Source: a virus
Taxonomy: Duplodnaviria > Caudoviricetes
Length of the DNA stretch: 64,000 nucleotides
Strand: one strand, 5' to 3'
Virus record (IMG/VR): IMGVR_UViG_3300029288_000110
Location: 37,759 to 101,758 of that record
The notes beneath the pieces were generated by a model. That model did not search any database. It was not told where the DNA came from and saw only the letters and a program-made list of their open reading frames with translations. Positions 29,991-50,463 of the stretch are shown here, in pieces; within the stretch, counting starts at the first letter, position 1, and every line of letters starts with the position of its first letter. Made by a program: the position numbers and the translations under genes.

Positions 29991-29993
29991 GTT

Positions 29994-30779
29994 TTACTCA
30001 CTCCCCGGAAGCAATGTCCTGACTTCCTCTCTAGCTTTCTCTAGAGATATTTCTCCCCTTTTTACACGCTTGGCGAGTTGGATGACAGGATTAAGATTAA
30101 CACCGTTGGCCTGGAGCCGGCGTAGGTAGGCTTCCATGGACTTTATCTTATCGTCATCTGGCACTGGTTCCTCCACGGACGATATGTGATATTCTGTTGC
30201 CTTGACAATTGATGGCTTTTCCATTCGCATAAGGGCCTGCTTGAATTCTCTCGAAACTTCGATTGCCTGGGCGGCTGTCCTCTCCAATTCCTGCACGGAC
30301 TTTATCTGGCCGATGTTCTGGCGAAGCTCCCTGATTTTCTGCATGAATGGTTCGATGAATTCCTGCTCTTCCCTCGGTGAATTTTGGATAGATTCCGGCG
30401 AAAGGTCAATGCGCTCCATGATGTTGATTTCTCTTTCGGCTGCATCAATACGCCGCATCGACTCATCACTGTCAACGCCGTCCTTCCGGGCAAAACGAAG
30501 AGCTTCATCCAGCGCTCCTGAAATAGTAGTAAGATGCGAACGAGAGCACGCCATGCAACTTGTGGCCACTCCCTTCTTTTCCCCCGCCGTATCGGCGGTT
30601 ATTACCGGGTTGGGACATTCGGGAAGCGATAGGGGAGGAGCAGGCACGATGAAGAGCTTGGAATAATCCGGCGTAGATTGCCGAAGCAATGAGTAGTCTA
30701 TTACCGGGGCTTTCGGTGGAGGTATGAGCTTTGTCAAAACTTGAATTACTTGCAGCACGCCATTAAGTGAAATTGCCAT
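29994..30779 (-). CDS. helical hypothetical protein with CxxC
   Basis: SCMACSRSH; first gene after the promoter. Confidence 0.75.
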   Translation of the reverse strand: MAISLNGVLQVIQVLTKLIPPPKAPVIDYSLLRQSTPDYSKLFIVPAPPLSLPECPNPVITADTAGEKKGVATSCMACSRSHLTTISGALDEALRFARKDGVDSDESMRRIDAAEREINIMERIDLSPESIQNSPREEQEFIEPFMQKIRELRQNIGQIKSVQELERTAAQAIEVSREFKQALMRMEKPSIVKATEYHISSVEEPVPDDDKIKSMEAYLRRLQANGVNLNPVIQLAKRVKRGEISLEKAREEVRTLLPGSE

Positions 30780-30799
30780 GTTCTTACCTCCTGGCCATG

Positions 30800-30828
30800 A
30801 TTATAACCCCAAGGGGCATGTTTGTCCA
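30800..30828 (-). promoter_or_regulatory. sigma70 promoter of the leftward operon
   Basis: TGGACA-17-TATAAT. Confidence 0.65.
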
Positions 30829-30992
30829 GATGTGATAATCCGGTCCTTTTCTACCCGTTGTTTTCTCCAATGGTGTAAATTGATAACATCGGGATTAGTT
30901 TTACATCTCATCCTTTTATATATCGTCTAACCCATGGTTTACACCTATGGCCGGATTAGCTATTTGTTTTACAATATCGCTTTACTCTATAC

Positions 30993-31021
30993 TTGACTTT
31001 TATTTACATCATCTCTATAAT
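30993..31021 (+). promoter_or_regulatory. sigma70 promoter of the rightward block (probably leaderless mRNA)
   Basis: TTGACT-17-TATAAT; ATG begins 7 nt downstream. Confidence 0.7.
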
Positions 31022-31027
31022 CTCAAT

Positions 31028-31756
31028 ATGGTGAAAAAGAAGCAGCCAAAAAAGCTCAGCTGGAACCCTAAACAAATCGAAGTCGCAAAGCTCATCGTGG
31101 CGGGTAAATTGAATGGTAAACAAATGGCGGAAACAGCTTCTGTTTCTGAGGGGTATATCTCTCAAGTAAAAGCCGCTTTGGATTCTGGCCAGATTCCACC
31201 GGTAAGTGTAAATTCCGAAGTTGAAGAAGATGTAAATCCCGCTGTGCCACTGAATGAATACCCTGCAAATGAATTAGTCGAAGAAGCGCAGCCGGAAGAA
31301 GAATTATTCCCCGAAAATGAAGACTCTCCGGCTCCACCTCCAAAAGAAAAATCTCAAGCAAAATACCCTCTTACTTCTGTAAAGAATGCGAATGCCAAGG
31401 TTAGTATGCCAGGCGTAGCATCAGCCCTTAAGCTAGTCCAGGTGCCAGTCGTCTGCCCTCTTACCCCTATCATGATGAACGCCCGGGCGGTAGCGCAATA
31501 TGAGTTGGGATGGATTCCAGATATGCCGTGGGAGGATTTTATTGATACTGTCTTTTATCATTATTTTAAAGCTCTCGGCTTTACGCTCCAAGGATATATA
31601 AAAGATAAGGTAGTGGAGGAAGCGGAATCCACCAAAACCTCTGTGCAATCTCAAAAAGTGTCTGGTAATGGGGGTACACATCTATCACCAGATGAAATGA
31701 AAGAATTAGCCAAGCAAACAGCCTCTTATATCATAGCTTTAAGTCAAGGAGGATAA
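31028..31756 (+). CDS. HTH DNA-binding protein
   Basis: NPKQIEVAKL...KQMAETASVSEGYISQV helix-turn-helix. Confidence 0.75.
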   Translation: MVKKKQPKKLSWNPKQIEVAKLIVAGKLNGKQMAETASVSEGYISQVKAALDSGQIPPVSVNSEVEEDVNPAVPLNEYPANELVEEAQPEEELFPENEDSPAPPPKEKSQAKYPLTSVKNANAKVSMPGVASALKLVQVPVVCPLTPIMMNARAVAQYELGWIPDMPWEDFIDTVFYHYFKALGFTLQGYIKDKVVEEAESTKTSVQSQKVSGNGGTHLSPDEMKELAKQTASYIIALSQGG

Positions 31757-31757
31757 A

Positions 31758-32744
31758 ATGCCTGTGCAAGAAACACCGAATGGTAGAATCGAAAAGCAAA
31801 TTGTGCCACCGATGAATGTAGGTAATCAACAGACTTCTTTTGTAGATGATGTGTTGAAAATCCGCCAGCAAGTGGCAGCGGAGAACATTGCCAAGAGTAG
31901 TTTTGGTAGTGGAGGAGCATCGGCAACTGATACTCTTGCGACTTCCATAGTGACGAAGGCACTGGAAAATCTCAATAAAGCGGAGGAACGGTATGCTTCA
32001 GACGCCCAGAAAAGCCGGCAGGATGCTATAGCCGCCGGAGCTGCACTGGAGAAAGCCAAGGAAGATGTCTATAAAGTCCAGATGGATTCTATGAAGATGA
32101 TGTTGGAAAGGCTGGAAAAGGCCCAGGCAGATGTGAGAGCTGGAGCGGCGGCGCCTAAATCGGTTTCTGATGCCATCAAGGAAGCCCAGGAGCTCGTTGC
32201 CATAATAAACGGTGGACGTGGTGAGGCGAATACGTTACGCCAACCTCCGACCACGGATATTTCAACTCAAATCTCACTCCTTAAACTCCAGCAAGAACAC
32301 GAAATGGCTATGAAGAAAATCGACCTTGAAATGTTGAAGATGAAGCAAGATGCGGACATCAAGATGCTGGAATTTAAAGATAACCGGGACCAGAAACTCC
32401 GGGAGTATGAAGACAATAGGAAATTCAAAGGCGATGCCATGAGCACTCTGGAAGATATCGCCGCTGCCGCTGCCGCTGCTACTGGTAGCAGTGGGGATAA
32501 AGAAGAGATGTCCTTTAGTGCTGAAGGGCATGATGAGGTTCGAGTGTCGAAGTCACCAAAATTTAAGCCGGGACCTCCGGCATCTTTGGCGCAAACTCCC
32601 CCAGCAGAGAGTGCAACGTATGAAGCTACGCTGCTTTCATTCCCCTGCCAGTCCTGCAAAACAGAAGTTTTAGTTCCTGAAGAGGGTGGAGGAGTCGTCT
32701 GTTCTAACTGCGGAGCAAAATATAACGTGGACAAGAAATTATGA
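31758..32744 (+). CDS. coiled-coil protein with C-terminal Zn ribbon
   Basis: Long helical heptads; CQSC...CSNC. Confidence 0.8.
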   Translation: MPVQETPNGRIEKQIVPPMNVGNQQTSFVDDVLKIRQQVAAENIAKSSFGSGGASATDTLATSIVTKALENLNKAEERYASDAQKSRQDAIAAGAALEKAKEDVYKVQMDSMKMMLERLEKAQADVRAGAAAPKSVSDAIKEAQELVAIINGGRGEANTLRQPPTTDISTQISLLKLQQEHEMAMKKIDLEMLKMKQDADIKMLEFKDNRDQKLREYEDNRKFKGDAMSTLEDIAAAAAAATGSSGDKEEMSFSAEGHDEVRVSKSPKFKPGPPASLAQTPPAESATYEATLLSFPCQSCKTEVLVPEEGGGVVCSNCGAKYNVDKKL

Positions 32745-33073
32745 AATTCGATATGACAGCGGCAGCTCGTGCGTTTATCAGCAGGAAAGCCACCCGGTTA
32801 ATCAGGACATTTCTTGCAGCTTTTACGCAGAGACAATTGGAGTTGTTCATTCAGCAACATAAGTTCATTACGGACTTTATACCGGAACAAAAACGGCAAA
32901 GTTTGAAGGCGAAAGCTAAGCCATATGTTGACATAATTGCAAAGTTCACAATTTCAGAAGCCTATCTTTGGATTCCTTTGGAGTATCGCACTTTCCTCGA
33001 ATCAACACCTGGCGGCAAAGAGTGGGCTATCGCTGAGTTAGAGCATATAAGAGAGTTTCTCCTGGATGCTTGA
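32741..33073 (+). CDS. hypothetical helical protein
   Basis: ATGA overlap with the upstream gene. Confidence 0.7.
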   Translation: MKFDMTAAARAFISRKATRLIRTFLAAFTQRQLELFIQQHKFITDFIPEQKRQSLKAKAKPYVDIIAKFTISEAYLWIPLEYRTFLESTPGGKEWAIAELEHIREFLLDA

Positions 33074-33099
33074 CGAGGTGGTTTATTTTACCTTATACT
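33070..33099 (+). promoter_or_regulatory. sigma70 promoter overlapping the upstream TGA
   Basis: TTGACG-18-TATACT. Confidence 0.6.
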
Positions 33100-33106
33100 C
33101 ATGTTT

Positions 33107-33226
33107 ATGACAACGAAAGAAAAGGCACTGCTCGGTGCCCTTGCCTTATCTTTTATTAGCTCTTTGGCAGCCAATCTTATTGTTAATTATATCAATAAGA
33201 AGGCTTTACAGAAGGCTTCACAATGA
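33107..33226 (+). CDS. 39-aa membrane peptide
   Basis: Hand translation; one TM helix; ATGA overlap with the next gene. Confidence 0.6.
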   Translation: MTTKEKALLGALALSFISSLAANLIVNYINKKALQKASQ

Positions 33227-33873
33227 AATTACCGCAAGCAGCAGATAACCAAGCAGTAATCGCTCGACCCGGCGGCGAGGCTATATGGATTACTGATATC
33301 ATTACGCCAAAAAATCCAGATGTTATGCTTCTCTACGATTCCCTAACCCATGGAGTTCATACTCAGATAGAAAAGATTATTTCTTGTTGGCAGTATGTAG
33401 CCTCCATCCCTTACAAGGAGATAGTAAACTCAAAATTAATAGTCCAAGGTAAATCATATACGGAAAAAGATACATGGCTTTACCCGGCGGAGGTTATTCG
33501 GCTGGCACCCGTGGCAAATTGTGCAAATAAGTCCTTTCTCCTCACATCTCTGCTAAGGAACGAGCTATCGGCAGAATCCGTAAGATGCGCTCTTGGTCAT
33601 ATTACGTTTGACGGTATTGGTGCTCATGCGTGGGTCTGTATGGATATACCAGAAGGTAGTTTCGTTTTAGAGACTACTGTGGATAATTTAGAGAAAGCTC
33701 TTCTCCCTTTAAATCGGGCAGATGCTTATGACCCAATAATCTATTTCAATGATGAAGGTGTTACCACGTTATCAGACAGCCAAATATTGGAAGAACATTT
33801 TGGTTTCTGTGCGGTAAAATGGCTGAAGGAGTATATATGTGAACGATGCCTTTCTCTAAACAGCCCATCTTGA
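33223..33873 (+). CDS. transglutaminase-like cysteine protease
   Basis: ANCANKSFLLTSLLR and HAWV (catalytic Cys/His). Confidence 0.8.
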   Translation: MKLPQAADNQAVIARPGGEAIWITDIITPKNPDVMLLYDSLTHGVHTQIEKIISCWQYVASIPYKEIVNSKLIVQGKSYTEKDTWLYPAEVIRLAPVANCANKSFLLTSLLRNELSAESVRCALGHITFDGIGAHAWVCMDIPEGSFVLETTVDNLEKALLPLNRADAYDPIIYFNDEGVTTLSDSQILEEHFGFCAVKWLKEYICERCLSLNSPS

Positions 33874-33898
33874 CAGAGTGAAAGGACCGGAATATACT
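33870..33898 (+). promoter_or_regulatory. sigma70 promoter overlapping the upstream TGA
   Basis: TTGACA-17-TATACT. Confidence 0.7.
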
Positions 33899-33933
33899 CA
33901 TGATGATTGGCAATCATCTCGGCGGAGGTACTT

Positions 33934-34386
33934 ATGTCGGTCCTGATTACTGAAACTATTGATTTAAACTCTGCTACTGAACAGGAAAAAGCTCTGGCTC
34001 CGGGACTTTATGAAGCTAGGTTCTACATCAATAACCCGGTATCATCGGTAGATATCCGAGATGCTCGCCTTTATCTTAAAGAACAAGGCGTTGATGTCAA
34101 GAGCGTTTACCAGAAGAAAGTCGGCGGACTTTGGTATGTGGGGGTAAAATATGTTATTCACCCACCGTCCGAATCCATTTCTTTCTTGCCTGTTGCTGTT
34201 ATTCCTCTCATCGGATTTGCTCTTGTATCCGTGCTTGTCGGCGTCGGCATATTTAAAATTGAATCTCTCACGAATAACATTGGGAAGATACTTCTCATTA
34301 CTCTTGGCGGTACGATAGTTATCGCTGCTTTATTGAGAAAACCTATTGAACATGCTACGGCTGCGGCTGTAAAGAAGTATGTCTAA
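33934..34386 (+). CDS. membrane protein with two C-terminal TM helices
   Basis: GGAGG RBS; hydropathy. Confidence 0.75.
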   Translation: MSVLITETIDLNSATEQEKALAPGLYEARFYINNPVSSVDIRDARLYLKEQGVDVKSVYQKKVGGLWYVGVKYVIHPPSESISFLPVAVIPLIGFALVSVLVGVGIFKIESLTNNIGKILLITLGGTIVIAALLRKPIEHATAAAVKKYV

Positions 34387-34805
34387 TGGCAGAAAATACT
34401 AGGAAAACCGATTGGGTAACCCCTATTGCTATAATCGGCGGCGGAGCGGCTCTGGCTGTCGGTGCTTATTTCCTTATTAAAAAAAAGACACTCATTGAAC
34501 CAGGCGATACATATGAAGTTACGTTCTCATTCAAATATCGTGGGCCGCAGTCTAATTACCTTCTCCGGGTTACCATGGGTAATATCATCGGATGGATTTT
34601 CAATGAGGAAGAATCCACGAGAGAAGAATATCCTATTGAGCTGTCGGCCTCTACGGATTGGCAACCTTATACATTTACAGTCTCTTACCATGTTCCCGAT
34701 GTCATCGGGAACCTTAACGATATGGAATACAGTATCCGCTATGCTAACACGAACATCGTAAGTGGCGCTCGAATACTGGCTGATAATGTTGTGAACCCTA
34801 ATTAA
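34386..34805 (+). CDS. N-terminally anchored beta-sandwich protein
   Basis: TM plus KKK, then beta-strand pattern. Confidence 0.75.
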   Translation: MAENTRKTDWVTPIAIIGGGAALAVGAYFLIKKKTLIEPGDTYEVTFSFKYRGPQSNYLLRVTMGNIIGWIFNEEESTREEYPIELSASTDWQPYTFTVSYHVPDVIGNLNDMEYSIRYANTNIVSGARILADNVVNPN

Positions 34806-34817
34806 GAAGGATATCCA

Positions 34818-35789
34818 ATGTCTCTGAGAAACGTAAAGCTCTATAGCTATACCAGCCAAGTACAGATGGGTGGGTGGTGCAGCATTGTGTTAACCTTCGA
34901 TTATCTGGGCGGAGGAGCCCAGATAGAAACGTATTGCGCAATCGGAAACAATGGTATATTTGGTTTCAATGAGGTTATAAGCGCCAGCAATATCCGTGAT
35001 ATTCCCAGTGCTTCTTCATGGACAAAATTTTTCGTCTCGGCGTTAATTAGAATAACAGAAGAACTCGACCCAGCAAAAATCTATGATGTGTATGGAAAAG
35101 TCAGAGAAGTAGGTGGTGGGTGGAATATCTCTGATATTGCGGTAGATGCCGTATGGTTTGCTGGGATGGAAAGGGAAGACCAAACACTTGAAATAGATGT
35201 CTCTCCGGCAGATGGTGGATATGTTATCACAAATCCTGCAAGTAATGAGGGGAAGTCCAACTGGGTGAACGGTAATACGGGGACATTCCCCTACGGAACG
35301 GATGTTATAGTAAGAGCTGTCCCGTACAGTGGATTTAAGTTTGACCACTGGAGTGATGAGATTGTGGGTGGAGTAAGCACGAACAATCCGGCCCATGTTC
35401 AATCCATGACAGAACATCGGGCGATTAAAGCCCATTTTGTTTCGGAAACCGCTGATGAAGAGAAACTTATCATCAGCATTACCCCGACTGGAAAGGGTAG
35501 CGTAACGGCGTCTCCTCAACCCAATCATATTATCAGTAATGATTGGTATTACACTTATGGGACTATCGTTACTCTTACCGCTCACCCTATCAGTGGGTGG
35601 AAATTCAAAAAGTGGTCTGATGAGATATCCGGTGGCGTAAATACCTCCAACCCTGCACAGGTATCGGCCATGACGGAAACACGCACTGTTCTTTGTCACT
35701 TTGAAGAAATCGATGACGGAGGTAGTGATGATGGTGGAGGTGGTGATGGAGAATTCGATAATTTATCTGTAAAGATTAAGAGGGCTTGA
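34818..35789 (+). CDS. protein with two InlB B-repeat-like domains
   Basis: YGT.V...A.P..G.KF..WS twice. Confidence 0.8.
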   Translation: MSLRNVKLYSYTSQVQMGGWCSIVLTFDYLGGGAQIETYCAIGNNGIFGFNEVISASNIRDIPSASSWTKFFVSALIRITEELDPAKIYDVYGKVREVGGGWNISDIAVDAVWFAGMEREDQTLEIDVSPADGGYVITNPASNEGKSNWVNGNTGTFPYGTDVIVRAVPYSGFKFDHWSDEIVGGVSTNNPAHVQSMTEHRAIKAHFVSETADEEKLIISITPTGKGSVTASPQPNHIISNDWYYTYGTIVTLTAHPISGWKFKKWSDEISGGVNTSNPAQVSAMTETRTVLCHFEEIDDGGSDDGGGGDGEFDNLSVKIKRA

Positions 35790-35814
35790 CAAACGAAAAG
35801 GACTACATTAAACT
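35786..35814 (+). promoter_or_regulatory. sigma70 promoter of the putative capsid operon, overlapping the upstream TGA
   Basis: TTGACA-17-TAAACT. Confidence 0.65.
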
Positions 35815-35958
35815 AGGGTCGATGGTCCCCCGACGGGGGGGCAGAGGATAAAACTTAATAGGCGGGATGGCGCTCTTCCGTGAGGAAGGGGAAAAAGGCC
35901 ATCCCGCCTTTTCTTTTCTCCAGGAGAGCGCTACCGCCACCCAAGAAGGAGGAATCTC
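35815..35958 (+). promoter_or_regulatory. structured 5' leader with terminator hairpin and alternative helix
   Basis: 12-bp stem 35860-35871/35898-35909 plus U tract; alternative partner at 35923-35938. Confidence 0.6.
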
Positions 35959-36333
35959 ATGGGTAAGATTGAATGGAAAAACGTATTGGTGGGCGTAGGG
36001 GTAGGCGGTGCAGACGAAGTGCTCGGTTACTGGGATGAAAAATCCGGCAGAACGGGCCTTGGGACCGCCGTTAACATCGGGCGTGCCGCAATGGTAGCGC
36101 TCGGTGCCTTGGGCGTAGCGACCGGCTATTTCCATAAATATGCCGAGCCCGTCATGAATGCTGCGACCCCCCTGCTTACCAAGTCCGTTATCCAGGCTAT
36201 CCGCAACCAGGTGAATTCCGGCGCCACTACTGCTCGTCTCAGCCAAATGAATATCCCTTCCCGCAGGGTTATGTCAAGAGGCACAATATCGAGCGCAGGC
36301 CCGGGCTTTGAAAACTTACCGCCTATTTACTAA
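35959..36333 (+). CDS. putative major virion membrane protein
   Basis: Strong AGGAGG RBS; Gly/Ala-rich hydrophobic helices; basic tail. Confidence 0.7.
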   Translation: MGKIEWKNVLVGVGVGGADEVLGYWDEKSGRTGLGTAVNIGRAAMVALGALGVATGYFHKYAEPVMNAATPLLTKSVIQAIRNQVNSGATTARLSQMNIPSRRVMSRGTISSAGPGFENLPPIY

Positions 36334-36403
36334 AGGCAAGAGCATCCACTAGGAAATATTTAACCCAGTGGAATTTGTATAGCTACCCAAGGAGGTACAT
36401 ACA

Positions 36404-36988
36404 ATGGAAAATCTGACTTATGTTATTCCTACCGAGGAAATTGCTCTCTCCGAACAGGGACAGCGCCGGCAAGCAGCCATTTTAGCCGGGAAAAATCGTG
36501 CGGCAAAGTTATGGAATCAGCCAATAGGTAACCTTGTTGCCCGTGATGAGGACTATGTTCAGGATTTTATCACCCCCGCAACTCCGGCTCTGGTCGCCGG
36601 CCTGAGCGGGTGGCTCTCCATGCCGTTTGCGGCAGCCGGTGCGTGGTATAGCCTTTTCGCCAACAACACGCCGGCGGCTATCGCACCCGTGTGCCCTACC
36701 AACCAGATATGGGTATTCTACAAGGTCAGCATCCTCACCCTGGCCGGACCCGACCCCGTTAGTATGCTCCAGTTCCGCACGGGCACTGCGGCCAACCTGA
36801 AATACCAGTTCAACCTGGAAAACCTCTACGGGAAACAGGTCCAGGATGGCTACTTCTCCCTGCCAGTAACCTATGAGAACCCGGAAATCGCAACCGTACA
36901 GGCGAGGTCCCGTGTGCTTCTCGGCATTGGGTGCCGCATCAAACTGGGCACCTTCATCATTGAAACCATGCAGACCACGGTGGTCTAA
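36404..36988 (+). CDS. putative single jelly-roll major capsid protein
   Basis: AGGAGGT RBS; flanking hairpins; N-terminal helix then about eight beta strands (fold inferred). Confidence 0.6.
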   Translation: MENLTYVIPTEEIALSEQGQRRQAAILAGKNRAAKLWNQPIGNLVARDEDYVQDFITPATPALVAGLSGWLSMPFAAAGAWYSLFANNTPAAIAPVCPTNQIWVFYKVSILTLAGPDPVSMLQFRTGTAANLKYQFNLENLYGKQVQDGYFSLPVTYENPEIATVQARSRVLLGIGCRIKLGTFIIETMQTTVV

Positions 36989-37042
36989 AAAATAAAGGTC
37001 GAATTTCGCAAAGGTGAGTATTCTGAATAAGGAGAAAATATC

Positions 37043-37501
37043 ATGAGCGGAAAATTAAGCGCACTTTATACCAATACCCTGAACCCGGATTTAGTCCGGC
37101 AGGTGGTCGCACCGGCGGCTGCGGTTGCGGCTTCAGGTGCCGTCCCGCTATGGGGCGCCTGGAGCGACCTCGTACTTCCGGCTGCGGTGCTTTTGCCTAC
37201 CCTTTGTGTAGGTTTCAGCATCGATACCCCGAGCGTGCTGGAAAGCTGGACAATCCAGATAGGCAATGCCAGAGGATATGCTAACGCTGCGGCTGTTACA
37301 GCTGCTGGGGCTGCGGCTATCGCTGCGGCTGCCCGTCAGACACTAAGGACGGAAATCATCACCCTCGTCGGTGCGTATCCCATTTTCTACTTCAAATTCC
37401 CCATTGTGTTTAATCCCGGGGAAGGCATCATCGCCCGTTCCGGCACCGTCGGCGGCACCGATACCATCAACGTCAGTCCTTTCCTAGTAACCGGCTTCTA
37501 A
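37043..37501 (+). CDS. putative jelly-roll virion protein
   Basis: beta-rich; PIVFNPGEGI pattern. Confidence 0.55.
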   Translation: MSGKLSALYTNTLNPDLVRQVVAPAAAVAASGAVPLWGAWSDLVLPAAVLLPTLCVGFSIDTPSVLESWTIQIGNARGYANAAAVTAAGAAAIAAAARQTLRTEIITLVGAYPIFYFKFPIVFNPGEGIIARSGTVGGTDTINVSPFLVTGF

Positions 37502-37625
37502 ACGGAGCGGTTATCAGTTAACGGCCTTGGGGGAAGGAAATACTCTTCCCCCAAGTGGTTAACTTAAAACTAAATAAGCTCCCCGGAGTTCATGTCTCCT
37601 AGAGAGCGAAACGAAATAGGAGGTC

Positions 37626-38216
37626 GTGATGGATAATTTATATAATCCCTACAGTGCTGAGCCGATTGCTCCCATTACCCGGGTAAAAGAAAATCTCGGG
37701 CTATGGACGGGGCAAAAATACGAACCCTTCCGGGTTGATTACATTGAGCCGATTCTAAGGTCTTCACCATATGTAATCGATGTGCTCGCCCTCGTTGCCG
37801 GCGTCACTCAACTCGCAGCCAACTCAGCTGCTCAGGCGCAACTTGTCCCGGCGCTTCAGATGAATACCGGTGAACTTTTCCATGCGAGATGGTATCCACT
37901 GGATGATGTTGAGGGTGGACTCTATCAACTCGCAGGTATGCCGAGAAACAATATGAGAGGCGGGCAATCCCGCACCTCTCTCCAGACGTTGTTTGTTGAC
38001 CCCTACCTTTCTCAGACCACCTTCTGGATTTACGGCTCAACTCCGGCGAAGGATGCCTACATACAGGTATTTAATCCAAAGCCGGTTTTCTGCACTATCG
38101 CCAGGTTCGCCTACTTCGGGTTTCGCTACATCCTCGAAGCCCTGACTGGCATCACCTATACGGGAATTTATCCCAACGTACAAAACATAACTTATCTTCC
38201 TGCTCAGGGTAGATAG
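37626..38216 (+). CDS. putative jelly-roll capsid protein (second MCP candidate)
   Basis: AGGAGG RBS; beta-rich, 196 aa. Confidence 0.55.
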   Translation: MMDNLYNPYSAEPIAPITRVKENLGLWTGQKYEPFRVDYIEPILRSSPYVIDVLALVAGVTQLAANSAAQAQLVPALQMNTGELFHARWYPLDDVEGGLYQLAGMPRNNMRGGQSRTSLQTLFVDPYLSQTTFWIYGSTPAKDAYIQVFNPKPVFCTIARFAYFGFRYILEALTGITYTGIYPNVQNITYLPAQGR

Positions 38217-38228
38217 AAGGAGTATGAG

Positions 38229-38642
38229 ATGGTAATGCTTGAGAATGTAAGAAAAGGTATTATCGGCCCAAATAACAGCCCGGCGGCTGCGAGAGGGTTG
38301 GTAACTTCTACCCTCCTCGGTCCCGACCTCTGCCACCTGCATACGGTTGGCCGGACGGTACGCATCAGGAAGATACTATGGTATAACGCTACCGGCGCTG
38401 CTCGTAATCTTATCTTCGGCACGGTTACCAACATCATACCGGTGGCGCCAGGCACCTTTGTGCCTCTTCTTCCACCCATTGTGGCCGTCAACGGCGTGCA
38501 TGATATGATTACCGAAGCCGAATTGCCCGATGTGGAATTTATACCTGACCGGACAGCGGGGGCTGGTGGTCTGACCGGTGATATCTATCTGATGGCTGGT
38601 GTCGCCGGTGTCCTTGTACGCCTCGAAGTCGAAGAATATTAA
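38229..38642 (+). CDS. putative jelly-roll virion protein (penton candidate)
   Basis: VRIRKILWYN...VLVRLEVEEY beta pattern. Confidence 0.55.
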   Translation: MVMLENVRKGIIGPNNSPAAARGLVTSTLLGPDLCHLHTVGRTVRIRKILWYNATGAARNLIFGTVTNIIPVAPGTFVPLLPPIVAVNGVHDMITEAELPDVEFIPDRTAGAGGLTGDIYLMAGVAGVLVRLEVEEY

Positions 38643-38658
38643 GGTTGGAGGCTAACGC

Positions 38659-38790
38659 ATGGGTGAGCAGATTGATATCTCCAAAATAAAAGGTCCGGAA
38701 ATAAAAGACGCTGGGGCTATCATTGTAATAGTCTCGGGAAATATGACCGTATCATCCTCAGACTCTAAGGTACAGATAGTGAAGAATTGA
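38659..38790 (+). CDS. 43-aa hypothetical protein
   Basis: GGAGG RBS; overlaps the next start. Confidence 0.5.
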   Translation: MGEQIDISKIKGPEIKDAGAIIVIVSGNMTVSSSDSKVQIVKN

Positions 38791-39302
38791 TGCAAAATCC
38801 ATATGTTGTTCAATATCTTGAATCGCTTCATCGCTCCGATGGAAGTTTTCTATGCCTTCCATCAGCGAATCAGATTCTTGTGCCATCCGTCCCGCCTAAT
38901 ACGCTGTTGACTTATAATACAGCTCCGGCTCCTGGTGTCTATGCAGCGATAGGTTATGGGGTGACTTTTGACCATGCTATAGTCCCCGGTTCTTTTAGAA
39001 TGACAATCGTCCAATGGGGTGCCCAACCTATTTCTGGAATACTGACTTCCGACCTTATCGCCAATGGGATTGAATATATCGGATTTGTCACTTCTTCCCA
39101 AAAGGCCGCTAGCTCAATCACTAATATAACACCTATGAATCAGTATCTATGCCTGACGGGATATTATCTCAATATCATTTCTCAGGAAGATTATGTTGAG
39201 GTGGTCAATGCTTTGAGGAAACTCGGTACGGTCGATGCAGTAAAGATACTGAATACAATAGCAGGAGCTAAGAATCCTCTCCCGCCAGAAGGGAGCACTT
39301 AA
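38787..39302 (+). CDS. putative jelly-roll virion protein
   Basis: beta-rich core with C-terminal helix. Confidence 0.55.
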   Translation: MMQNPYVVQYLESLHRSDGSFLCLPSANQILVPSVPPNTLLTYNTAPAPGVYAAIGYGVTFDHAIVPGSFRMTIVQWGAQPISGILTSDLIANGIEYIGFVTSSQKAASSITNITPMNQYLCLTGYYLNIISQEDYVEVVNALRKLGTVDAVKILNTIAGAKNPLPPEGST

Positions 39303-39763
39303 TGAATCCCATACAGATTCCCTCATTAATTCTCCCGTTTCCAAGCGTCAATTTGACCAGTTGGCAGTTGATAGCCGATTTGCTGGTATATAATTCTCTC
39401 GATATCCCCATTGAAAATCTGGATGAAAAAACCGCTTTCATATGGGCAAGTGAAATATCGCCCGCAGGTGCTCCCGGGCCGCTTTGGGCATGGCCGGAAC
39501 TTTCTCCCTTCCCAACTTCTGTATCCGGGAATTTCTGGGCTGCGATAGGCGGAGGAGCTGGCCCATCCTATCCGGCGGTAGCGGCTCTTGTCCCCGTTGC
39601 TCCGCTTGTTATTACAGGTACGGGTGTTAACGGCGTTGTCCAAACACCGATGCTCCGCTTCCTGAACCATGCTCCTTACGCAAGGATAAGAATGCAGATG
39701 CCCATCCTAGGTGCCGCTGGCTCTGGTTGGGCCGTGCAGGTATGGTTTGCCGGAAAGGGGTAG
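39302..39763 (+). CDS. putative jelly-roll virion protein
   Basis: PYARIRM...WAVQVWF terminal strands. Confidence 0.55.
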   Translation: MNPIQIPSLILPFPSVNLTSWQLIADLLVYNSLDIPIENLDEKTAFIWASEISPAGAPGPLWAWPELSPFPTSVSGNFWAAIGGGAGPSYPAVAALVPVAPLVITGTGVNGVVQTPMLRFLNHAPYARIRMQMPILGAAGSGWAVQVWFAGKG

Positions 39764-39764
39764 G

Positions 39765-40061
39765 ATGAAAGGCGATGCGAAAGGTATTTTAATTGCGCTA
39801 GGTTCTGCTGGTATACTTACTGGTATTATTGTATTGCTCAAAAAGAATGCAAAAAGTAAGGAGGATACCACGACTGTTGATTCTTCCATTACAGATATAC
39901 AGGAAAGTATTATGTCGGCAGAAAATCTTATGCAACTTAATGGTTATTATGACCAAATTGGTGGCATGTTAAATGCAGGTATCATTGCCATAGAAGAATA
40001 CGATGAACTCTATATGGCATATTTGAGAAGTTATTATCGGCTGACCGGAGTAACAGTATGA
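39765..40061 (+). CDS. membrane-anchored helical protein
   Basis: N-terminal TM plus KK. Confidence 0.7.
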   Translation: MKGDAKGILIALGSAGILTGIIVLLKKNAKSKEDTTTVDSSITDIQESIMSAENLMQLNGYYDQIGGMLNAGIIAIEEYDELYMAYLRSYYRLTGVTV

Positions 40062-41503
40062 AGATACCACTTAGCGGCATGGATTTAGGCAACCCTGCCA
40101 TACTTGCCCTTCAGGCAGTTGGTTCATACTGGGGTGTGACATCCGCCGATGGCAGTGCGCTCGGCATCACCGTAGTAGATGATGGGTTAGTGTTAGAACC
40201 TTCCTACGATGGGCTGACGATAAAAATATTATCTGGGCCAGCGGCAGGCCAAGCGAGGTCTATTTTTGTTCATAATGGCAATATCGTAACGGTGGCAGCT
40301 GCTTTTACCAACCCCGCCGGAGCGGTGCAGCAAATTACTCGTGGAACACTCTTCTGCATTACTTCCTTTACCGGTGGGGGTAGTGGTCCGGGGCCGGCTC
40401 CTCAAGAGGGTCTGGTTTATTATGGCGTTGTAGATGCCATACCGGGGGCCAACCAATTTACTATCGGCTCACTCGCAGGATTAGGGGCGGGTAAATTTGT
40501 CTCTCCCACCAACTCATATTATGCGTTTGTGCTCCGTGATGCTGGTGGTTTGAGTGCTGCTCCCCAGGGAGAATTTCAGGCCATTACCGCTTATGCCACG
40601 GCCACAGGAATTTTCACCACAGCGGCTTTTACAGCAGCAGTAGGGGTAGGGGATGAAATCCTCATCCTTCATCCTTCCATCGCCGCAAGTATAGCGATTA
40701 TTCTTAACCTTGCCGTACCTGGCGCTGATGTTGCTACCAACGTCTATGAGCGGGATGTAATCGGCAATAAAGCTGACACGGCCCTTTATGCGATAACCGC
40801 TACAGCAAGCCTCATGCGGTACATTAAGGCTCTTGTTAATTCAGGCATAGCGGCAAGCGGTGCCGTAAACGATGCAGGGGCTGCCATTACCGATTTCGAT
40901 ACCAACCTAACTGAGGCAACCAATGACCATTATAATGGTATGGTGATGATGTTCATTTCTGGTGCTAATGCCGGCCAGAGTCATATTATCGATGATTATA
41001 TAGGGGCATCAAAGAACGTATCCTTCGCCACTGGAGACCAGTGGACGGATGTTCCAGTGACAGGGGATGTCTTTGTAATTCTTCCCACGACTGATAAACT
41101 CATTCTTAGTAGACTCAGTATTTCAAGAGCTGGAGCACCTCAGACCTTTACAAAGAATATCACATCGGCAGCTAATGCTGGTGATGTTAATATAGCAACG
41201 GTAACTGCTCAGACATGTTTAATTAAACGAATAATTGTTCGAGCTAATGCAGCTCAAACTGGTGATTTAACAAAAATCGGTGTTTATGGTGGGACTGGTA
41301 AAGTAGTTACTTTTATTGATGATGTTACGGGCGTAAGGGCAAACATAGCTGCTACGGACCAGCAGGTATATTCCTCCGACCCCATAAGCTTGCCTGCTAC
41401 GAAGACTATCGTTATTACGTTGACAGGTACGGGCGGTACGGCTGTCAATCTGCAAATAGACATTGAATATGAAGCAGTAGCTGATGGAGGTTACCTTGTA
41501 TGA
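40058..41503 (+). CDS. putative spike/adhesin with three internal beta repeats
   Basis: Repeated Y.G......SG..AGQ...I units; Gly/Ala/Thr-rich. Confidence 0.7.
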   Translation: MKIPLSGMDLGNPAILALQAVGSYWGVTSADGSALGITVVDDGLVLEPSYDGLTIKILSGPAAGQARSIFVHNGNIVTVAAAFTNPAGAVQQITRGTLFCITSFTGGGSGPGPAPQEGLVYYGVVDAIPGANQFTIGSLAGLGAGKFVSPTNSYYAFVLRDAGGLSAAPQGEFQAITAYATATGIFTTAAFTAAVGVGDEILILHPSIAASIAIILNLAVPGADVATNVYERDVIGNKADTALYAITATASLMRYIKALVNSGIAASGAVNDAGAAITDFDTNLTEATNDHYNGMVMMFISGANAGQSHIIDDYIGASKNVSFATGDQWTDVPVTGDVFVILPTTDKLILSRLSISRAGAPQTFTKNITSAANAGDVNIATVTAQTCLIKRIIVRANAAQTGDLTKIGVYGGTGKVVTFIDDVTGVRANIAATDQQVYSSDPISLPATKTIVITLTGTGGTAVNLQIDIEYEAVADGGYLV

Positions 41504-42237
41504 CACCCGTAGGAATTAATGGCATCAGCTCCCAGTGTAAGGGCGTCAACGGTGTACAAACCAAGCAAGCTCTTAACGCTGCCAATGAAACTGTATCTAA
41601 AGGGGTCTATAACGCTACGACTTTAAGTTCTGTTGATGCTGATTTGGCTGTTGGCAATATAAAAGGTGGAGTCACCATCTTTGGTAAACTAGGTACGTAT
41701 GTTCTAACTGAAACCATTGAGAAATATGCTGATGCATCTTTAGCAATAGGAGCAACTTACACACCAGCAGCCTCTGGAATATTTTTTGCACTTTGTGTTC
41801 TCAGCATAAGGGTGCAATATTATTCTACTGTTGCCGCAGCTTGGTATTCACCTTTCAATGATACATATCACGCTGGAGTTACTGCTATAGGTGATGGTAC
41901 TAATTTCAGATTATATGCAAATGCAGCAGGAGAGTACTGCTTAATGCGTCATTATTCGTCACTGGGGACATATACGAGAGATAAAGACGAACAGTTGGCA
42001 GAAGGGGCAAGTTATACACCAGCAGCATCAGGATTCTTTGCAAATGCAATGTCCTTTGTGACCAGGCCGGTTTTACAGATAAATAGAACAACTGCGGGCT
42101 GGACAGACGTACAGGAAGGTCAAAGCGCCGTTCATTTTCTAAGTATCGTTATAGGTGATGGTACTAACTTACGTGTAACAAATCCGGCTGGAGCAGGTGC
42201 ACAGTATCATGTACTTATGCGAGCTAAAATGAGTTAG
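41500..42237 (+). CDS. putative receptor-binding protein with a tandem duplication
   Basis: YTPAASG and IGDGTN.R each occur twice. Confidence 0.7.
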   Translation: MTPVGINGISSQCKGVNGVQTKQALNAANETVSKGVYNATTLSSVDADLAVGNIKGGVTIFGKLGTYVLTETIEKYADASLAIGATYTPAASGIFFALCVLSIRVQYYSTVAAAWYSPFNDTYHAGVTAIGDGTNFRLYANAAGEYCLMRHYSSLGTYTRDKDEQLAEGASYTPAASGFFANAMSFVTRPVLQINRTTAGWTDVQEGQSAVHFLSIVIGDGTNLRVTNPAGAGAQYHVLMRAKMS

Positions 42238-42246
42238 GAGAATAAA

Positions 42247-42615
42247 GTGGGGAATTTAAAAGAAACTGCAAAACAGACAAGAATAGCCGCTTATAAATCT
42301 AATCTTAAATCTTTACTTGCTGATGATATTATTGATACAAGCCTGGCCGAATTTGCAGACCTTAAAAGTGAACATGGTAAGCCAATGAGTTCTCTTAATG
42401 GAGAAATTATACTTCAAAGAGATGTTGATGCAAATGGTAAACTTAAAGGAGTAATATCCATACATCCAGATATACTTGCTACTATACTGCCCGATATCAA
42501 AGCTGACCCCATTGGTACTGGCTGGAATAAATATATTGCTAATTACAACGCTAAGGGCAAAAATATACTCAACGGTGTAGCTGATAGGCAGGCTAATGAA
42601 TACGAACAGGAGTAA
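42247..42615 (+). CDS. hypothetical protein (possible spike chaperone)
   Basis: AGGAG RBS; follows the adhesin gene. Confidence 0.6.
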   Translation: MGNLKETAKQTRIAAYKSNLKSLLADDIIDTSLAEFADLKSEHGKPMSSLNGEIILQRDVDANGKLKGVISIHPDILATILPDIKADPIGTGWNKYIANYNAKGKNILNGVADRQANEYEQE

Positions 42616-42618
42616 TCC

Positions 42619-44025
42619 ATGGACAAGGATAAAAAAACAGCGTTACTCGCCGGGGCCGGATTGGTTGGATTGGCGGCTGTAGGGTGGGGTATATATAAAC
42701 TTAAACATACAACACCAAAGGAAGAAGCTGGCAAAGCTCATCTCGTAGGAAGGATAGTTGATGAATCAGGCTATCCACTGGGCAACGTAATAGTTAGTCT
42801 GTATAGCGGCAATGAACGTATGGGTTCGTTTACTACCGGGGCAAATGGCACGTATGCCTTTTATAATATTCCTCTCGGTACATACGTAGTTAATTTTGTC
42901 AAATCTGGATACCTGAGTAATTCTTTTAGCATTTCTCTCACGGGCATCGGAACCGCCGTCGATGATTTTGTTCTTTATGCCGAGACTGCCGAACCAGTCT
43001 ATGGCGTGGTGCAGGGCAGGGTGGTCAATCCATCCGGGCATGGCTTATCCGGGGTAAATGTCACACTCAATACCGATGCTGAAGGTAACCAATACACCAC
43101 GACCAATGCCAGCGGCTATTATGCTTTTACGGATGTTACCGTAAACCAATATTGCCTTATAAGTTTTGCGAAAGACGGCTATATCAATGACTCCTTTGAG
43201 TTTCAGCTCGGCCAGGGGGGTGCGACGCTCGGAGACATGACTCTAGCAAGCGAAACTATTCCCCAGGAAACCGGCATCGATTTCACAATGAATTTCTCAA
43301 ATGAATATTTTATGGACCTTCATAACGTGAACGGCGTTCCGATTGCGGAGACGGGCTCAATCCGTTATCTGGTCGGTGAGCTACACACATATCCATATAT
43401 CCGGCTGGCCCATCCTATTGTGGCGGAAAAGCCAGACGGGCTGATATTTAACTTTACAGTCCGTGGTAATTCAACCTGGCTTTATCCTGGCTCACAATTT
43501 CCTGGAGAGATGGGATTAAAGTTTATTGCCATGTTCTTCCGGTATGGTCTCACGCCGCCTCCTTCCGGCATAAGATTTAGCACCTACCTTGGAATAGGAG
43601 AAAATGGCGTGCGAGTGCCTTTTAATGGCTCTGCTAACGCAAATTCATTTTACTGGAGCAAGAATCTACTGTATTACTCGCCGGGTTTATATGATGTGTT
43701 AGTCGATACGTCATTCGGTCAGTTTCTTATCCTCGGCGCCGTAAATGTTACTGGTAATCGTCCATATGCTGCAAACTATTATCTGCAAACTTTTGCTGAG
43801 ATTTACGCACAGCAAGCGAAAGAGGATGCGATAGAACAATGGCTACAAACCCATCCGATGCCGGTGTACGACCCACAAAATCCTGGTGCTTTCCAGCAGG
43901 CTATGACGGCGTGGTCTCAGGCAAAAGTAGTGGTGGGGCAGGCCGCCATTGAGGCTGCTATTATCCAGTTTATGGCATCCCATACGGAAGAGGCAGCCTA
44001 CGAATGGTATATGTCTACACATTAG
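42619..44025 (+). CDS. membrane-anchored protein with two carboxypeptidase-regulatory-like domains
   Basis: N-terminal TM; GR.V...G..L..V.V.L...T...G.Y.F...F.K.GY twice. Confidence 0.85.
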   Translation: MDKDKKTALLAGAGLVGLAAVGWGIYKLKHTTPKEEAGKAHLVGRIVDESGYPLGNVIVSLYSGNERMGSFTTGANGTYAFYNIPLGTYVVNFVKSGYLSNSFSISLTGIGTAVDDFVLYAETAEPVYGVVQGRVVNPSGHGLSGVNVTLNTDAEGNQYTTTNASGYYAFTDVTVNQYCLISFAKDGYINDSFEFQLGQGGATLGDMTLASETIPQETGIDFTMNFSNEYFMDLHNVNGVPIAETGSIRYLVGELHTYPYIRLAHPIVAEKPDGLIFNFTVRGNSTWLYPGSQFPGEMGLKFIAMFFRYGLTPPPSGIRFSTYLGIGENGVRVPFNGSANANSFYWSKNLLYYSPGLYDVLVDTSFGQFLILGAVNVTGNRPYAANYYLQTFAEIYAQQAKEDAIEQWLQTHPMPVYDPQNPGAFQQAMTAWSQAKVVVGQAAIEAAIIQFMASHTEEAAYEWYMSTH

Positions 44026-44038
44026 AGGAGGCAGTCAA

Positions 44039-44356
44039 ATGTTTAAGTGGGTTGAGAGTGCTTATTTCTGGCTATTGTGGTTCCTGGGATTTTCAGATAC
44101 GGATGGTGAATTCCAGACTCCTGATGATAGAGAAAAAATTACTTTTATGCTGCGCAGGATGAAGGAGCGCATGGGAGTAATTTGGTGGATTCTATCACTG
44201 GGAACGATACTGGGGATTTGGACAGTCTGCCTGCTCATATCCTATTGGTATATCCCATTAGTAGCATTTCTGCTCTGGCTCTTCGTTCACGTTTTATACC
44301 CATATACTCCGCCAGACAATATCTGGAATGGCAAAAAGTTGAAGAGGGATGACTGA
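44039..44356 (+). CDS. integral membrane protein
   Basis: GAGGAGG RBS; Trp-rich TM segments. Confidence 0.7.
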   Translation: MFKWVESAYFWLLWFLGFSDTDGEFQTPDDREKITFMLRRMKERMGVIWWILSLGTILGIWTVCLLISYWYIPLVAFLLWLFVHVLYPYTPPDNIWNGKKLKRDD

Positions 44357-44396
44357 TAAGGTATTATAAAAGTAATCCTAAATATGAGGTAATACC

Positions 44397-44765
44397 ATGG
44401 GTGAATCGACCGTAGCGCTTCTCATTCAAGCTGGTGCCGTCGGGATAGCATTAGCTTTGGTAGGTCTACTTTACTTTACTCTTAAAGGCAAAAAAGATAG
44501 TGAAGAATCTGACCGCTTGGTCCTAACCAATCACCTCTCCGGTCTTTTGAAGGATGACATTGAAAGCCGTAAGCAGCTCACTATTGCGCTAACCACTCTT
44601 AACAGCACTGTGAGCAATTCAACACAGAATTGCTCACAGATTCAAAAGGATATGCAGAAGGCCAATAATGATATGCAAAAGACTAACAATGATATCAGTA
44701 TTACGCAAAAATCCCTCAATAACGAAGTGGAGCAACTGGAGGAATTAGTAAAAAAGCTCTCCTAA
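44397..44765 (+). CDS. holin-like protein (single TM plus coiled coil)
   Basis: Hydropathy; last gene of the block. Confidence 0.55.
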   Translation: MGESTVALLIQAGAVGIALALVGLLYFTLKGKKDSEESDRLVLTNHLSGLLKDDIESRKQLTIALTTLNSTVSNSTQNCSQIQKDMQKANNDMQKTNNDISITQKSLNNEVEQLEELVKKLS

Positions 44766-45232
44766 TCAATTTGGCCCGACCTAGCAATCAATATGGCATC
44801 AGCTCTGTCAACATTTTTTTTCAATCCCAATGGTGCTCTCGGATAAAGTTGCTGGGCAAGTGTACGAGCTGCATCCTTATCCCTTCCAATTAGTTTTGCT
44901 GTTTTTTTCCATTTGTGTGGTGTGACAAGGACTAATGGTATTTGTAGGGCAGCTAGAACACCGAGGACACTTCCATAAGACATCCCAAATGTAAAAGAGC
45001 TTGATACTCCCTGTTTCGGCATGGCGTTTACCTGCTCCACATATGCCCTGATGATATCCTGATTGAAATATTTCTCCCAATACCGTAGGGCTTTGGCAAG
45101 CTCCGCCGGATTTACTTGCCGGCGCTTTCCTGTCAGTGCCATTGTAGGCATATCGATAACATGGAGAAATTCGTTCTTAGGTCCAAGAAAAGCTATTGCT
45201 CCATCAGCACCTGGGTCAATTCCTATAATCAT
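44762..45232 (-). CDS. RuvC-like Holliday junction resolvase
   Basis: IIGIDPG, YVEQV, SSFTFG, DRADAILIA. Confidence 0.9.
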   Translation of the reverse strand: MIIGIDPGADGAIAFLGPKNEFLHVIDMPTMALTGKRRQVNPAELAKALRYWEKYFNQDIIRAYVEQVNAMPKQGVSSSFTFGMSYGSVLGVLAALQIPLVLVTPHKWKKTAKLIGRDKDAARTLAQQLYPRAPLGLKKNVDRADAILIARSGQID

Positions 45233-45483
45233 TTAGCCACTCTCCCAAAGGCTTCCTTTGTACCCTGTGTAAAGTTTGAGGTGTGAATAGCTCTGGCCAT
45301 ATGGAAATCAGCTGCCGTAGTAAGATGTTTGCTGGTTTTCATCCAGCATTCAGCCTCCTTTTTACGCAATTTCGCCTCTTCTCTCCATAACCTTTCAGCT
45401 TCCCGATAGAGTCTGTGTGCTTTTTCCCATTGTGTCTCAGCCATAATTTGACTCCTTTTATCCCATATACTTTCTTTTCCCAT
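45229..45483 (-). CDS. hypothetical helical protein
   Basis: Coupled ORF. Confidence 0.6.
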   Translation of the reverse strand: MGKESIWDKRSQIMAETQWEKAHRLYREAERLWREEAKLRKKEAECWMKTSKHLTTAADFHMARAIHTSNFTQGTKEAFGRVAK

Positions 45484-46133
45484 CAGGTTAATGGCAGGAG
45501 CTTAGCGCCGATGACCCATACCCAGGGGTTTTTGTTCCAGCCATACCCACGCTTTTCATTCAGCTTATCCCAGAGACGCCTATATTCCTCATAGGCCGTA
45601 GTCCAAAGCATCCTATTATCGAAGGCTGGAATTATTCCTTTTATTTGGTGGGTATGATGCCCCCTGCATCCTTCCCTAACTGCATCAGCTTCAGTCAATG
45701 CCTGTACCTGTTCTACCCTTAGTTCGGTAATCTCTTGTGAGATGCGGCTATATTTACGGGGCATGAAGATAGAAGGTTTCTTCCAGTACATACCCGATGC
45801 AATACCTTCAAGCATGGCCTCGGGTGTGACAAGCGGATGAGGCTCATAATAAGACGCTAGATAGGAGTGGAAGCCGTGGAAATCTTCCAAATAGGTCTCT
45901 TTTCCCCACAATCTCGAGCCGATTTCACCGTAAGGGCAGCGGATGTTTATCACATCCCCGGAGTGGATATTGCGGAAACTATACCTACCCTCAGAGTCAG
46001 AGCCTACCCGCATCCAATGATTGGAGAACTCGTTTATTCGGTTAAGACCCCTTGTCCGACGGGTCATATCTTTCCGACCATCTAGTACATCCACCGGATG
46101 GGAGCCGCTGTAAATAATTCCTGTCTCTTTCAT
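45483..46133 (-). CDS. ASCH/PUA-like phage protein
   Basis: GRK.MTRR, CPYG..G.RLW.KET, KPSIFMPR, NPWVWVI. Confidence 0.8.
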   Translation of the reverse strand: MKETGIIYSGSHPVDVLDGRKDMTRRTRGLNRINEFSNHWMRVGSDSEGRYSFRNIHSGDVINIRCPYGEIGSRLWGKETYLEDFHGFHSYLASYYEPHPLVTPEAMLEGIASGMYWKKPSIFMPRKYSRISQEITELRVEQVQALTEADAVREGCRGHHTHQIKGIIPAFDNRMLWTTAYEEYRRLWDKLNEKRGYGWNKNPWVWVIGAKLLPLT

Positions 46134-46146
46134 AATGTTTTCTCCT

Positions 46147-46401
46147 TCAGCTTTTATAATCCGTGCAAAAAATACAGGCGTTTGACGTTCTGCCACGCAA
46201 TACGGCTATGAGGTACATAGACCCATCTCGGGACCCCGGGTGCAATTTGTGACCGGCAGCGCATCTGACTCTATTCCCCATAACCCGGGCCTGAAGACAA
46301 TCGAACGTGATTTTTCCATGTGTTTTCCGATGCTCCACCCGTTCCAATTCAAAGGCTTCTTCGTTGGATTCGCTCCATGGGTCTGCAACGACTGTTTTCA
46401 A
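46147..46401 (-). CDS. Cys-rich hypothetical protein
   Basis: Coupled ORF. Confidence 0.6.
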   Translation of the reverse strand: MKTVVADPWSESNEEAFELERVEHRKTHGKITFDCLQARVMGNRVRCAAGHKLHPGSRDGSMYLIAVLRGRTSNACIFCTDYKS

Positions 46402-48716: not shown

Positions 48717-48740
48717 CCTTTTAGCTACATTATTTACATC

Positions 48741-50452: not shown

Positions 50453-50463
50453 TTTAAGCTCCT

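Follow-up and report, generated by a model that had tools for sequence, protein, structure and literature searches.

A probable morphogenesis operon of a tailless bacterial virus with single jelly-roll proteins and no recognisable packaging motor

The 22 genes between positions 30993 and 44765 of a 64,000-nucleotide stretch of viral DNA (the window) are most likely an operon for particle assembly in a so far undescribed family of tailless bacterial viruses. Our preferred reading, to which we assign a probability of about 70%, is that this region directs virion morphogenesis in a tailless dsDNA virus of bacteria, probably icosahedral and probably membrane-containing, with a genome of about 58 to 61 kb, separate from the tailed phage found on the same record, and that its DNA is enclosed without a motor. 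An earlier note had proposed a large, temperate, bacterial single jelly-roll virus without a packaging ATPase. The core of this proposal was supported by four jelly-roll models and by the lack of a detectable ATPase in the element and a complete relative (G002), but the temperate lifestyle was not. No description of such a bacterial family was found in the literature covered, which lay outside subscription journals.

The 22 genes, against about 20 in the earlier estimate, are co-oriented on the + strand between about 31031 and 44765. Position 30993, previously taken as the start of the module, corresponds to the -35 box of a sigma-70 promoter close to the consensus rather than to a gene start. 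A second, oppositely oriented sigma-70-like site was detected at 30828-30800 (11/12, by consensus match). The features of the operon are as follows.

30993..31021 (+): sigma-70-like promoter at the operon head, 11/12 by sequence match to the consensus
31031..31756 (+): first gene, conserved (homologues in L002, L005 and L035), start uncertain; possible DNA-binding protein, no family assigned by profile searches
31758..32744 (+): conserved coiled-coil protein with a C-terminal Zn ribbon (weak Pfam Zn-ribbon matches)
32741..33073 (+): 110-aa protein, conserved in relatives
33223..33873 (+): transglutaminase-fold Cys/His enzyme (motifs, neighbours, profile); candidate maturation protease or cross-linker
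33934..34386 (+): conserved two-TM membrane protein (hydrophobicity)
34386..34805 (+): beta-sandwich protein with N-terminal anchor (profile search, hydrophobicity)
34818..35789 (+): surface or spike protein, Ig-like and two InlB B-repeat domains (PF18998, E 6.5e-18)
35786..35950 (+): leader of the capsid operon, with a promoter-like site and strong predicted RNA structure
35959..36333 (+): Gly-rich 124-aa protein immediately 5' of the capsid gene, position kept in relatives; may be a membrane or scaffold protein
36404..36988 (+): candidate for the major capsid protein, predicted N-terminal helix and SPV1-like single jelly-roll
37043..37501 (+): beta-sandwich protein (viral Atlas neighbours, TM 0.75), copy number variable in relatives; may be a decoration or minor capsid protein
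37502..37625 (+): long hairpin between genes, perhaps an attenuator or a processing site
37629..38216 (+): another conserved protein with a predicted jelly-roll fold; putative second or minor capsid protein
38229..38642 (+): conserved, predicted jelly-roll fold; putative vertex, turret or cement protein
38659..38790 (+): 43-aa ORF, position conserved, five relatives; overlooked in the earlier note
38790..39302 (+): predicted jelly-roll flanked by helices at its termini; possible penton protein
39302..39763 (+): beta-rich protein, conserved in relatives
39765..40061 (+): small N-anchored membrane protein (hydrophobicity, conservation)
40058..41503 (+): conserved 481-aa repeat-built protein (relatives, E down to 1e-104), putatively spike-like
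41500..42237 (+): variable spike-tip or receptor-binding candidate, at the position of LamG genes in relatives
42247..42615 (+): 122-aa protein
42619..44025 (+): membrane-anchored protein, two carboxypeptidase-regulatory-like Ig domains (PF13620, E 2.8e-23)
44039..44356 (+): two-TM protein (hydrophobicity), possibly holin-like from its size and position
44397..44765 (+): N-anchored coiled-coil membrane protein (hydrophobicity)

Six beta-rich ORFs of 137 to 196 aa (36404, 37043, 37629, 38229, 38790 and 39302, named by gene start) are present as reported, although the 43-aa ORF between the fourth and fifth means that they are not strictly consecutive. Strong RBSs precede the first four (AAGGAGGT, TAAGGAG, AGGAGGT and AAGGAG), as had been noted. 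Intergenic hairpins were clear in the leader at 35815-35950 (z -4.4 versus shuffles) and at 37502-37625 (z -3.7) but not at 36334-36403 or 36989-37042, where structure was not clearly above that of shuffles. Of at least seven membrane proteins claimed, Kyte-Doolittle analysis detected a clear hydrophobic segment in six (33934, 34386, 39765, 42619, 44039 and 44397) and a borderline one in the Gly-rich 35959 protein, whose gene has a strong RBS and a GC3 of 0.59. Profile searches detected homologues of the 33223 protein in 11 of 12 related loci, its Cys and HAW motifs were retained across relatives, and Transglut_core was found on neighbouring genes in L025 and L028. No homologue of the 41500 protein was found in related loci.

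The 36404 gene has the highest GC3 and the strongest RBS, and its protein has 93 homologue clusters. The best structural match of its model was a chain of PDB 6OJ0, which we take to be the SPV1 capsid chain, over 143 residues including the N-terminal helix; structural identity was 9 to 10%, and a search of PDB sequences detected no similarity between the two. Single jelly-rolls were predicted for four of the six beta-rich proteins, namely all those folded (36404, 37629, 38229 and 38790), the lead one nearest SPV1, in line with the folds expected for 36404-39763. The latter three were folded jointly as an artificial read-through (37626-39299) with stops read as Gly, for which no biological read-through is claimed and in which per-domain Z values may be understated. 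According to these models, the element has at least four jelly-roll genes, and the number is probably six.

None of the six beta-rich proteins had a named match in Pfam, PHROGs, PDB sequences or GenBank phages, and they were not detectable paralogues of one another (hhalign probability under 2%). A BFVD structure search gave generic rows of jelly-roll and C1q type, none of them a clear match, and neither of the capsid proteins tested matched 50,697 GenBank phage records by tblastn. The expected IMG/VR homologues were found for the 37629 family by pattern scan, while scans for the 36404 protein were empty. L003 has no homologue of 37043 between its capsid gene and its 37629 homologue. A quick capsid tree served for orientation alone. 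The jelly-roll proteins of a plasmid-like or vesicle-borne element could instead form a surface appendage, a filament or an enveloped pleomorphic particle. We consider this quite improbable, given that the closest structure is a capsid chain, whose N-terminal helix is part of the alignment, that penton-like and spike-like genes follow in an order typical of virion operons, and that relatives occur in IMG/VR and on a groundwater contig named for the 0.1-μm fraction.

The operon lies in an element bounded by insertion sequences, whose main features outside the operon are listed here.

1277..59678 (strand not applicable): virus element of 58,402 bp, flanked by two ISL3 copies
1828..2421 (-): second, divergent capsid gene copy outside the operon (family profile, E 1.2e-14)
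3842..4738 (-): tyrosine recombinase, present also in both complete circular relatives
59679..62579 (+): ISL3 element at the junction of the virus element with the tailed phage; the other copy ends at window position 1276

If circular with a single IS, the element would measure about 61.3 kb. Profile searches for terminase, portal, HK97 capsid, FtsK, A32, DUF87 and AAA_22 found no match in the 58-kb element, bearing out the reported lack of the first three. Terminase, portal and HK97 capsid matches were detected on the same contig outside the window (C1:972-6328). The earlier note had named such genes as a possible contradiction, but they are best explained as part of a second, tailed phage that the assembler joined through the IS. 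Depth differed, a target duplication was present on the phage side, and the two assembled separately, indicating two viruses; a single 101-kb virus was rejected on these grounds. HK97 capsid, portal and terminase on one genome, the Caudoviricetes trait, were found neither in the element nor in complete G002. The IMG/VR record resembles an ordinary 101-kb tailed phage and hides the jelly-roll element.

With these head genes on the same record, the operon could be read as accessory to a tailed phage, contributing to the decoration, fibres or baseplate of a 101-kb HK97 phage, or as part of a satellite borrowing a tailed helper's head. Several jelly-roll structural matches were to tailed-phage cement or fibre proteins, Atlas neighbours carried the label Uroviricota, and a PHROG "tail protein" match directly follows the operon in G002. 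However, labels of uncultured clusters are assigned automatically, and a complete circular relative of ~40 kb has the jelly-roll operon without head or portal genes. A satellite is disfavoured because 40 to 61 kb with its own replication genes is too large. Together with the evidence for two viruses, these points largely refute an accessory role, which we regard as very improbable.

The only P-loop had been placed in the DnaC-like protein; this loader carries a variant Walker A, and no canonical Walker A was present in any frame of the window. At the motif and HMM level (DUF87, FtsK, A32, AAA_22 and a custom profile), no packaging ATPase was detected in the element or in G002, which has no Walker A at all. 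The claimed absence holds for these two but not for one complete relative (G001:C10), in which a Zot/FtsK-like ATPase is encoded outside the operon; the ATPase also occurs in one related fragment. A virus of the same kind could instead package its DNA with a motor, the FtsK/HerA-type ATPase being divergent, supplied by the host or lost at the IS junction, and be a distant Halopanivirales-like virus with 36404 and 37629 as capsid proteins. The unclosed element ends and the presence of two conserved jelly-roll proteins of about 190 aa would fit this reading, but the two lack profile similarity, the relative's ATPase sits outside the operon, and in six-frame searches of G000, G002 and the other loci its custom profile found nothing at E values of 5 or less (for L001, L005, L014, L023, L025 and L026, the searches covered the loci). 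Motor-driven packaging is thus unlikely, and viruses of this family most likely for the most part have no recognisable DNA-packaging motor.

In the preferred, motor-free reading, the 36404 protein would form a hexameric lattice, with 37629, 38229 and 38790 supplying second capsid, vertex and penton parts. The 35959 and TM proteins may recruit host-derived membrane, and spikes would be built from the 40058-44025 products. Circular DNA would be condensed by protein, possibly the small, basic, Cys-containing proteins encoded in the divergent operon, and then wrapped by membrane and shell during assembly with no motor, as in SPV1. The transglutaminase-fold enzyme (33223) is a maturation candidate.

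Portogloboviridae (Sulfolobus polyhedral virus 1, SPV1) resemble the element in having no genome-packaging ATPase, a feature in which G001:C10 differs. SPV1 has a nucleoprotein-condensed genome of about 20 kb that is enclosed without a motor. The family infects archaeal Sulfolobales, whereas the element has bacterial signals; its circular dsDNA of ~20 kb is smaller, as claimed, than the 58 to 61 kb found here and the circular complete relatives of 40,124 and 50,059 bp. The element also has extra jelly-roll genes (at least four in all) and recombinase, clamp and transglutaminase-fold genes. The jelly-roll penton of Portogloboviridae may have a counterpart in 38790, modelled as a jelly-roll, and the TM genes and small basic proteins are at most suggestive of a condensed genome within an internal membrane like theirs. 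FLiP has a 9-kb ssDNA genome, and FLiP-type viruses have a double jelly-roll capsid, in contrast to the single jelly-rolls of the element. FLiP (Finnlakeviridae) and ATPase-less double jelly-roll viruses are bacterial and membrane-containing and have no packaging ATPase (PMC8812541). Halopanivirales (Singelaviria; SH1, HHIV-2, HCIV-1, P23-77 and SNJ1) are defined by two paralogous capsid proteins and an FtsK-like ATPase (PMC8812541). The element and G002 have no detectable FtsK/HerA-superfamily packaging ATPase, 36404 and 37629 are both predicted jelly-rolls but have no similarity by profile, and the modelled lead capsid protein appears nearer SPV1. SSIP-1 is described as bacterial, with an internal membrane, a circular 44-kb dsDNA genome, possibly single jelly-rolls and two capsid protein types (PMC6260650, PMC6356626), and resembles the element in these respects as far as they are predicted here; no SSIP-1 structure was among the structure-search matches.

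Sigma-70 promoters, SD sites, a bacterial clamp and the DnaC-like loader support the claim of a bacterial rather than archaeal virus, and the host appears to be a bacterium, with the balance modestly in favour of Dehalococcoidia. The ISL3 element was absent from the 301 Dehalococcoidia genomes searched, which is uninformative either way. The temperate lifestyle was not upheld: the recombinase also occurs in free circles, and 0 of 400 other Dehalococcoidia genomes had the capsid gene. If the host is Dehalococcoidia, the finding bears on bacteria that are abundant in the subsurface and important in bioremediation, and for which few viruses are known.

One small archaeal family is known to fill a single jelly-roll shell without a motor, and it is considered to resemble the ancestor of an entire virus realm. 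A bacterial counterpart whose genomes are two to three times as large would mean that this design scales and crosses domains, and such viruses escape terminase- and portal-based surveys. More tentatively, at slightly under even odds, a widespread undescribed family of bacterial viruses, with Dehalococcoidia as the probable hosts, carries the SPV1 design to genomes of 40 to 60+ kb with more jelly-roll proteins, and one branch gained a Zot/FtsK-like ATPase, sampling the transition from an ancestor like the portogloboviruses to Halopanivirales that has been proposed (PMC8812541). Members with and without an ATPase would allow a "capsid first, motor later" order to be tested by comparison.

The first 36 kb of the 101,758-bp contig of the IMG/VR record, which lie outside the window, code for a terminase, a portal, an HK97 capsid and tail proteins; the earlier note had stated beforehand that HK97 or tail genes of the same element outside the window would refute its reading of a tailless virus. 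Two 99.9%-identical copies of a 2.9-kb ISL3 element flank a 58,402-bp segment (1277-59678), with an 8-bp target duplication on both outer (phage-side) flanks of the copies and inner flanks unlike each other. Read depths from the probable source run, a landfill metagenome, were 14 for the tailed part, 25 to 26 for the segment and 45 for the IS passenger part. In the ENA k141 assembly, the segment was found by itself on a 58,684-bp contig (window 1136-59819 by offset), corresponding to the element with 141 bp of IS at each end; this contig was probably built from the same reads, so that only its method is independent. The most economical interpretation is of two replicons with one common IS that were merged during assembly, which assigns the HK97 and tail genes to a separate molecule; real cointegrates may form a small fraction. 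The record, rated 97% complete, is probably a chimera, and we infer that the element is closed as a circle. The near-identical IS hints at the same host for both replicons. Features of the record include the following.

G000:C1:1-36133 (this record's contig) plus window 62580-64000: ordinary HK97-type tailed phage, ~43 kb, merged with the element via the common ISL3
1828-2421, minus strand: second, divergent capsid gene copy, distant from the operon and preceded by an RBS of its own
4938-5025: tRNA-Ser, adjoining the recombinase gene
17976-18050: tRNA-Met
33223-33873: transglutaminase-fold Cys/His protein, kept across the family
44762-45232: RuvC-like resolvase, convergent with the end of the operon
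51155-53335: secreted InlB-repeat protein, 726 aa

The operon (~31031-44765) consists of 22 genes in the same orientation, headed by an 11/12 match to the sigma-70 consensus (30993-31021) and pointing away from a neighbouring divergent operon. Six beta-rich ORFs proposed previously were confirmed as genuine, with strong RBSs upstream of the first four, but they are not strictly consecutive, the fourth and fifth being separated by a conserved 43-aa ORF (38659-38790). Two intergenic structures exceeded shuffled sequences (z -4.4 and -3.7) while two others did not, and of the seven or more membrane proteins claimed, six had clear hydrophobic segments and the Gly-rich protein 35959 was borderline. 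The transglutaminase-fold product is a candidate maturation protease or capsid cross-linker.

The gene order 35959, capsid, 37043-like, 37629, 38229, small ORF, 38790, 39302, anchor and spike was found again, within the reach of each locus and profile, in 12 loci (JGI, ENA, Logan, IMG/VR and one MAG). Profile searches detected the transglutaminase-fold gene in 11 of the 12; in G002, a circular relative, it is relocated outside the operon. Of the relatives, G002 (40,124 bp) and G001:C10 (50,059 bp) are complete circles whose ends overlap by 127 bp; another is present in two assemblies (62,032 and 61,899 bp), and one contig measures 78 kb. The gene directly after the G002 spike matched a PHROG 'tail protein' and is most likely a receptor-binding domain. 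In a quick tree, L003, which shares its bin with G001:C10, has its capsid protein on a distant branch. One relative also carries a second capsid gene copy (L014:1215-1778); such copies could encode an alternative capsid or an interference factor. Capsid profile matches in 19 stretches of the 1,795-aa protein P0044 are probably a repeat artefact.

A canonical Walker A motif was absent from every frame of the window, the DnaC-like loader having a variant form. G002 also lacked Walker A and gave no match to Terminase_6N, Phage_capsid, Phage_portal, Pox_A32 or AAA_22, although identical searches did give matches in control genomes. The proposed lack of a packaging ATPase held, by motif and profile, for this element and G002, but some relatives do encode an ATPase. 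G001:C10 encodes a weakly Zot-like 268-aa protein (E 7e-4), ~20 kb away from the operon, in which both Walker motifs (A and B) are followed by an Arg and hydrophobic-strand motif; a close homologue is on a related fragment of the same bin.

G001:C10:36634-38488 (= L045:16634-18488) and L047:879-2736: Zot/FtsK-like ATPase with a paired 348-aa coiled-coil, Cys-tipped protein

L025 and L028 encode, ahead of the operon, an AAA_25 ATPase with primase-associated PHROG matches. As the G001:C10 profile gave no match in this record, G002 or the other loci, and the AAA_25 protein has no homologue in this record, the sequences indicate that no ATPase is common to the whole family and that certain members have one.

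The fold, synteny and gene absences are established computationally. The element fails on the ATPase for Halopanivirales and on all three hallmarks (HK97 capsid, portal, terminase) for Caudoviricetes; its operation resembles that of Portogloboviridae, whereas host and genome size differ. SPV1-type viruses lack an ATPase (PMC8812541). Searches of the openly available literature found no description of such a family, and we regard the element as real and new at the family level, of a kind already known.

We infer a particle, a membrane and a packaging route along the following lines. Protein 36404 would most likely form the lattice, 37629, 38229 and 38790 the second-capsid, vertex and penton parts, and 40058-44025 the spikes, with 35959 and the TM proteins most likely recruiting membrane. 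Because there is no motor, the circular genome would probably be compacted by a basic protein and enclosed as the particle assembles, as has reportedly been proposed for SPV1. In several relatives, the divergent operon includes a glutaredoxin-like gene as well as small basic Cys proteins; these Cys proteins, which fall into at least two families not linked to each other, are putative candidates for the condensing nucleoprotein.

The host is a bacterium, in agreement with the earlier note. Weak clues suggest Dehalococcoidia: the sole organism-named match of the clamp, the IS transposase cluster and the binning of three relatives in one Dehalococcoidia MAG (G001). This 4.9-Mb bin contains 18 terminase matches, many viral contigs and three family members, and its labels are not to be relied on for host assignment; the capsid gene was found in 0 of 400 other Dehalococcoidia genomes. 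The tyrosine recombinase is internal in the element and both free circles carry it as well, so it could act as a resolvase; a temperate lifestyle is possible but somewhat doubtful. The last operon gene of a relative (L035:17001-17921) is homologous (E 1e-73) to the lysis-position gene of the tailed phage (C1:20853-21650), which suggests gene exchange within a common host; the element itself lacks this homologue.

Within the divergent operon, the stretch 18152-20785 encodes proteins of glutaredoxin-like, ferritin-like and double Zn-finger type together with small basic Cys proteins; the first three and protein 19031 have homologues in relatives. A 2,653-aa protein (20829-28790, minus strand) had no Pfam match; its gene adjoins that of a HAD phosphatase (28791-29990, minus strand), and a gene for an 1,854-aa protein occupies the matching position in the related locus L002.
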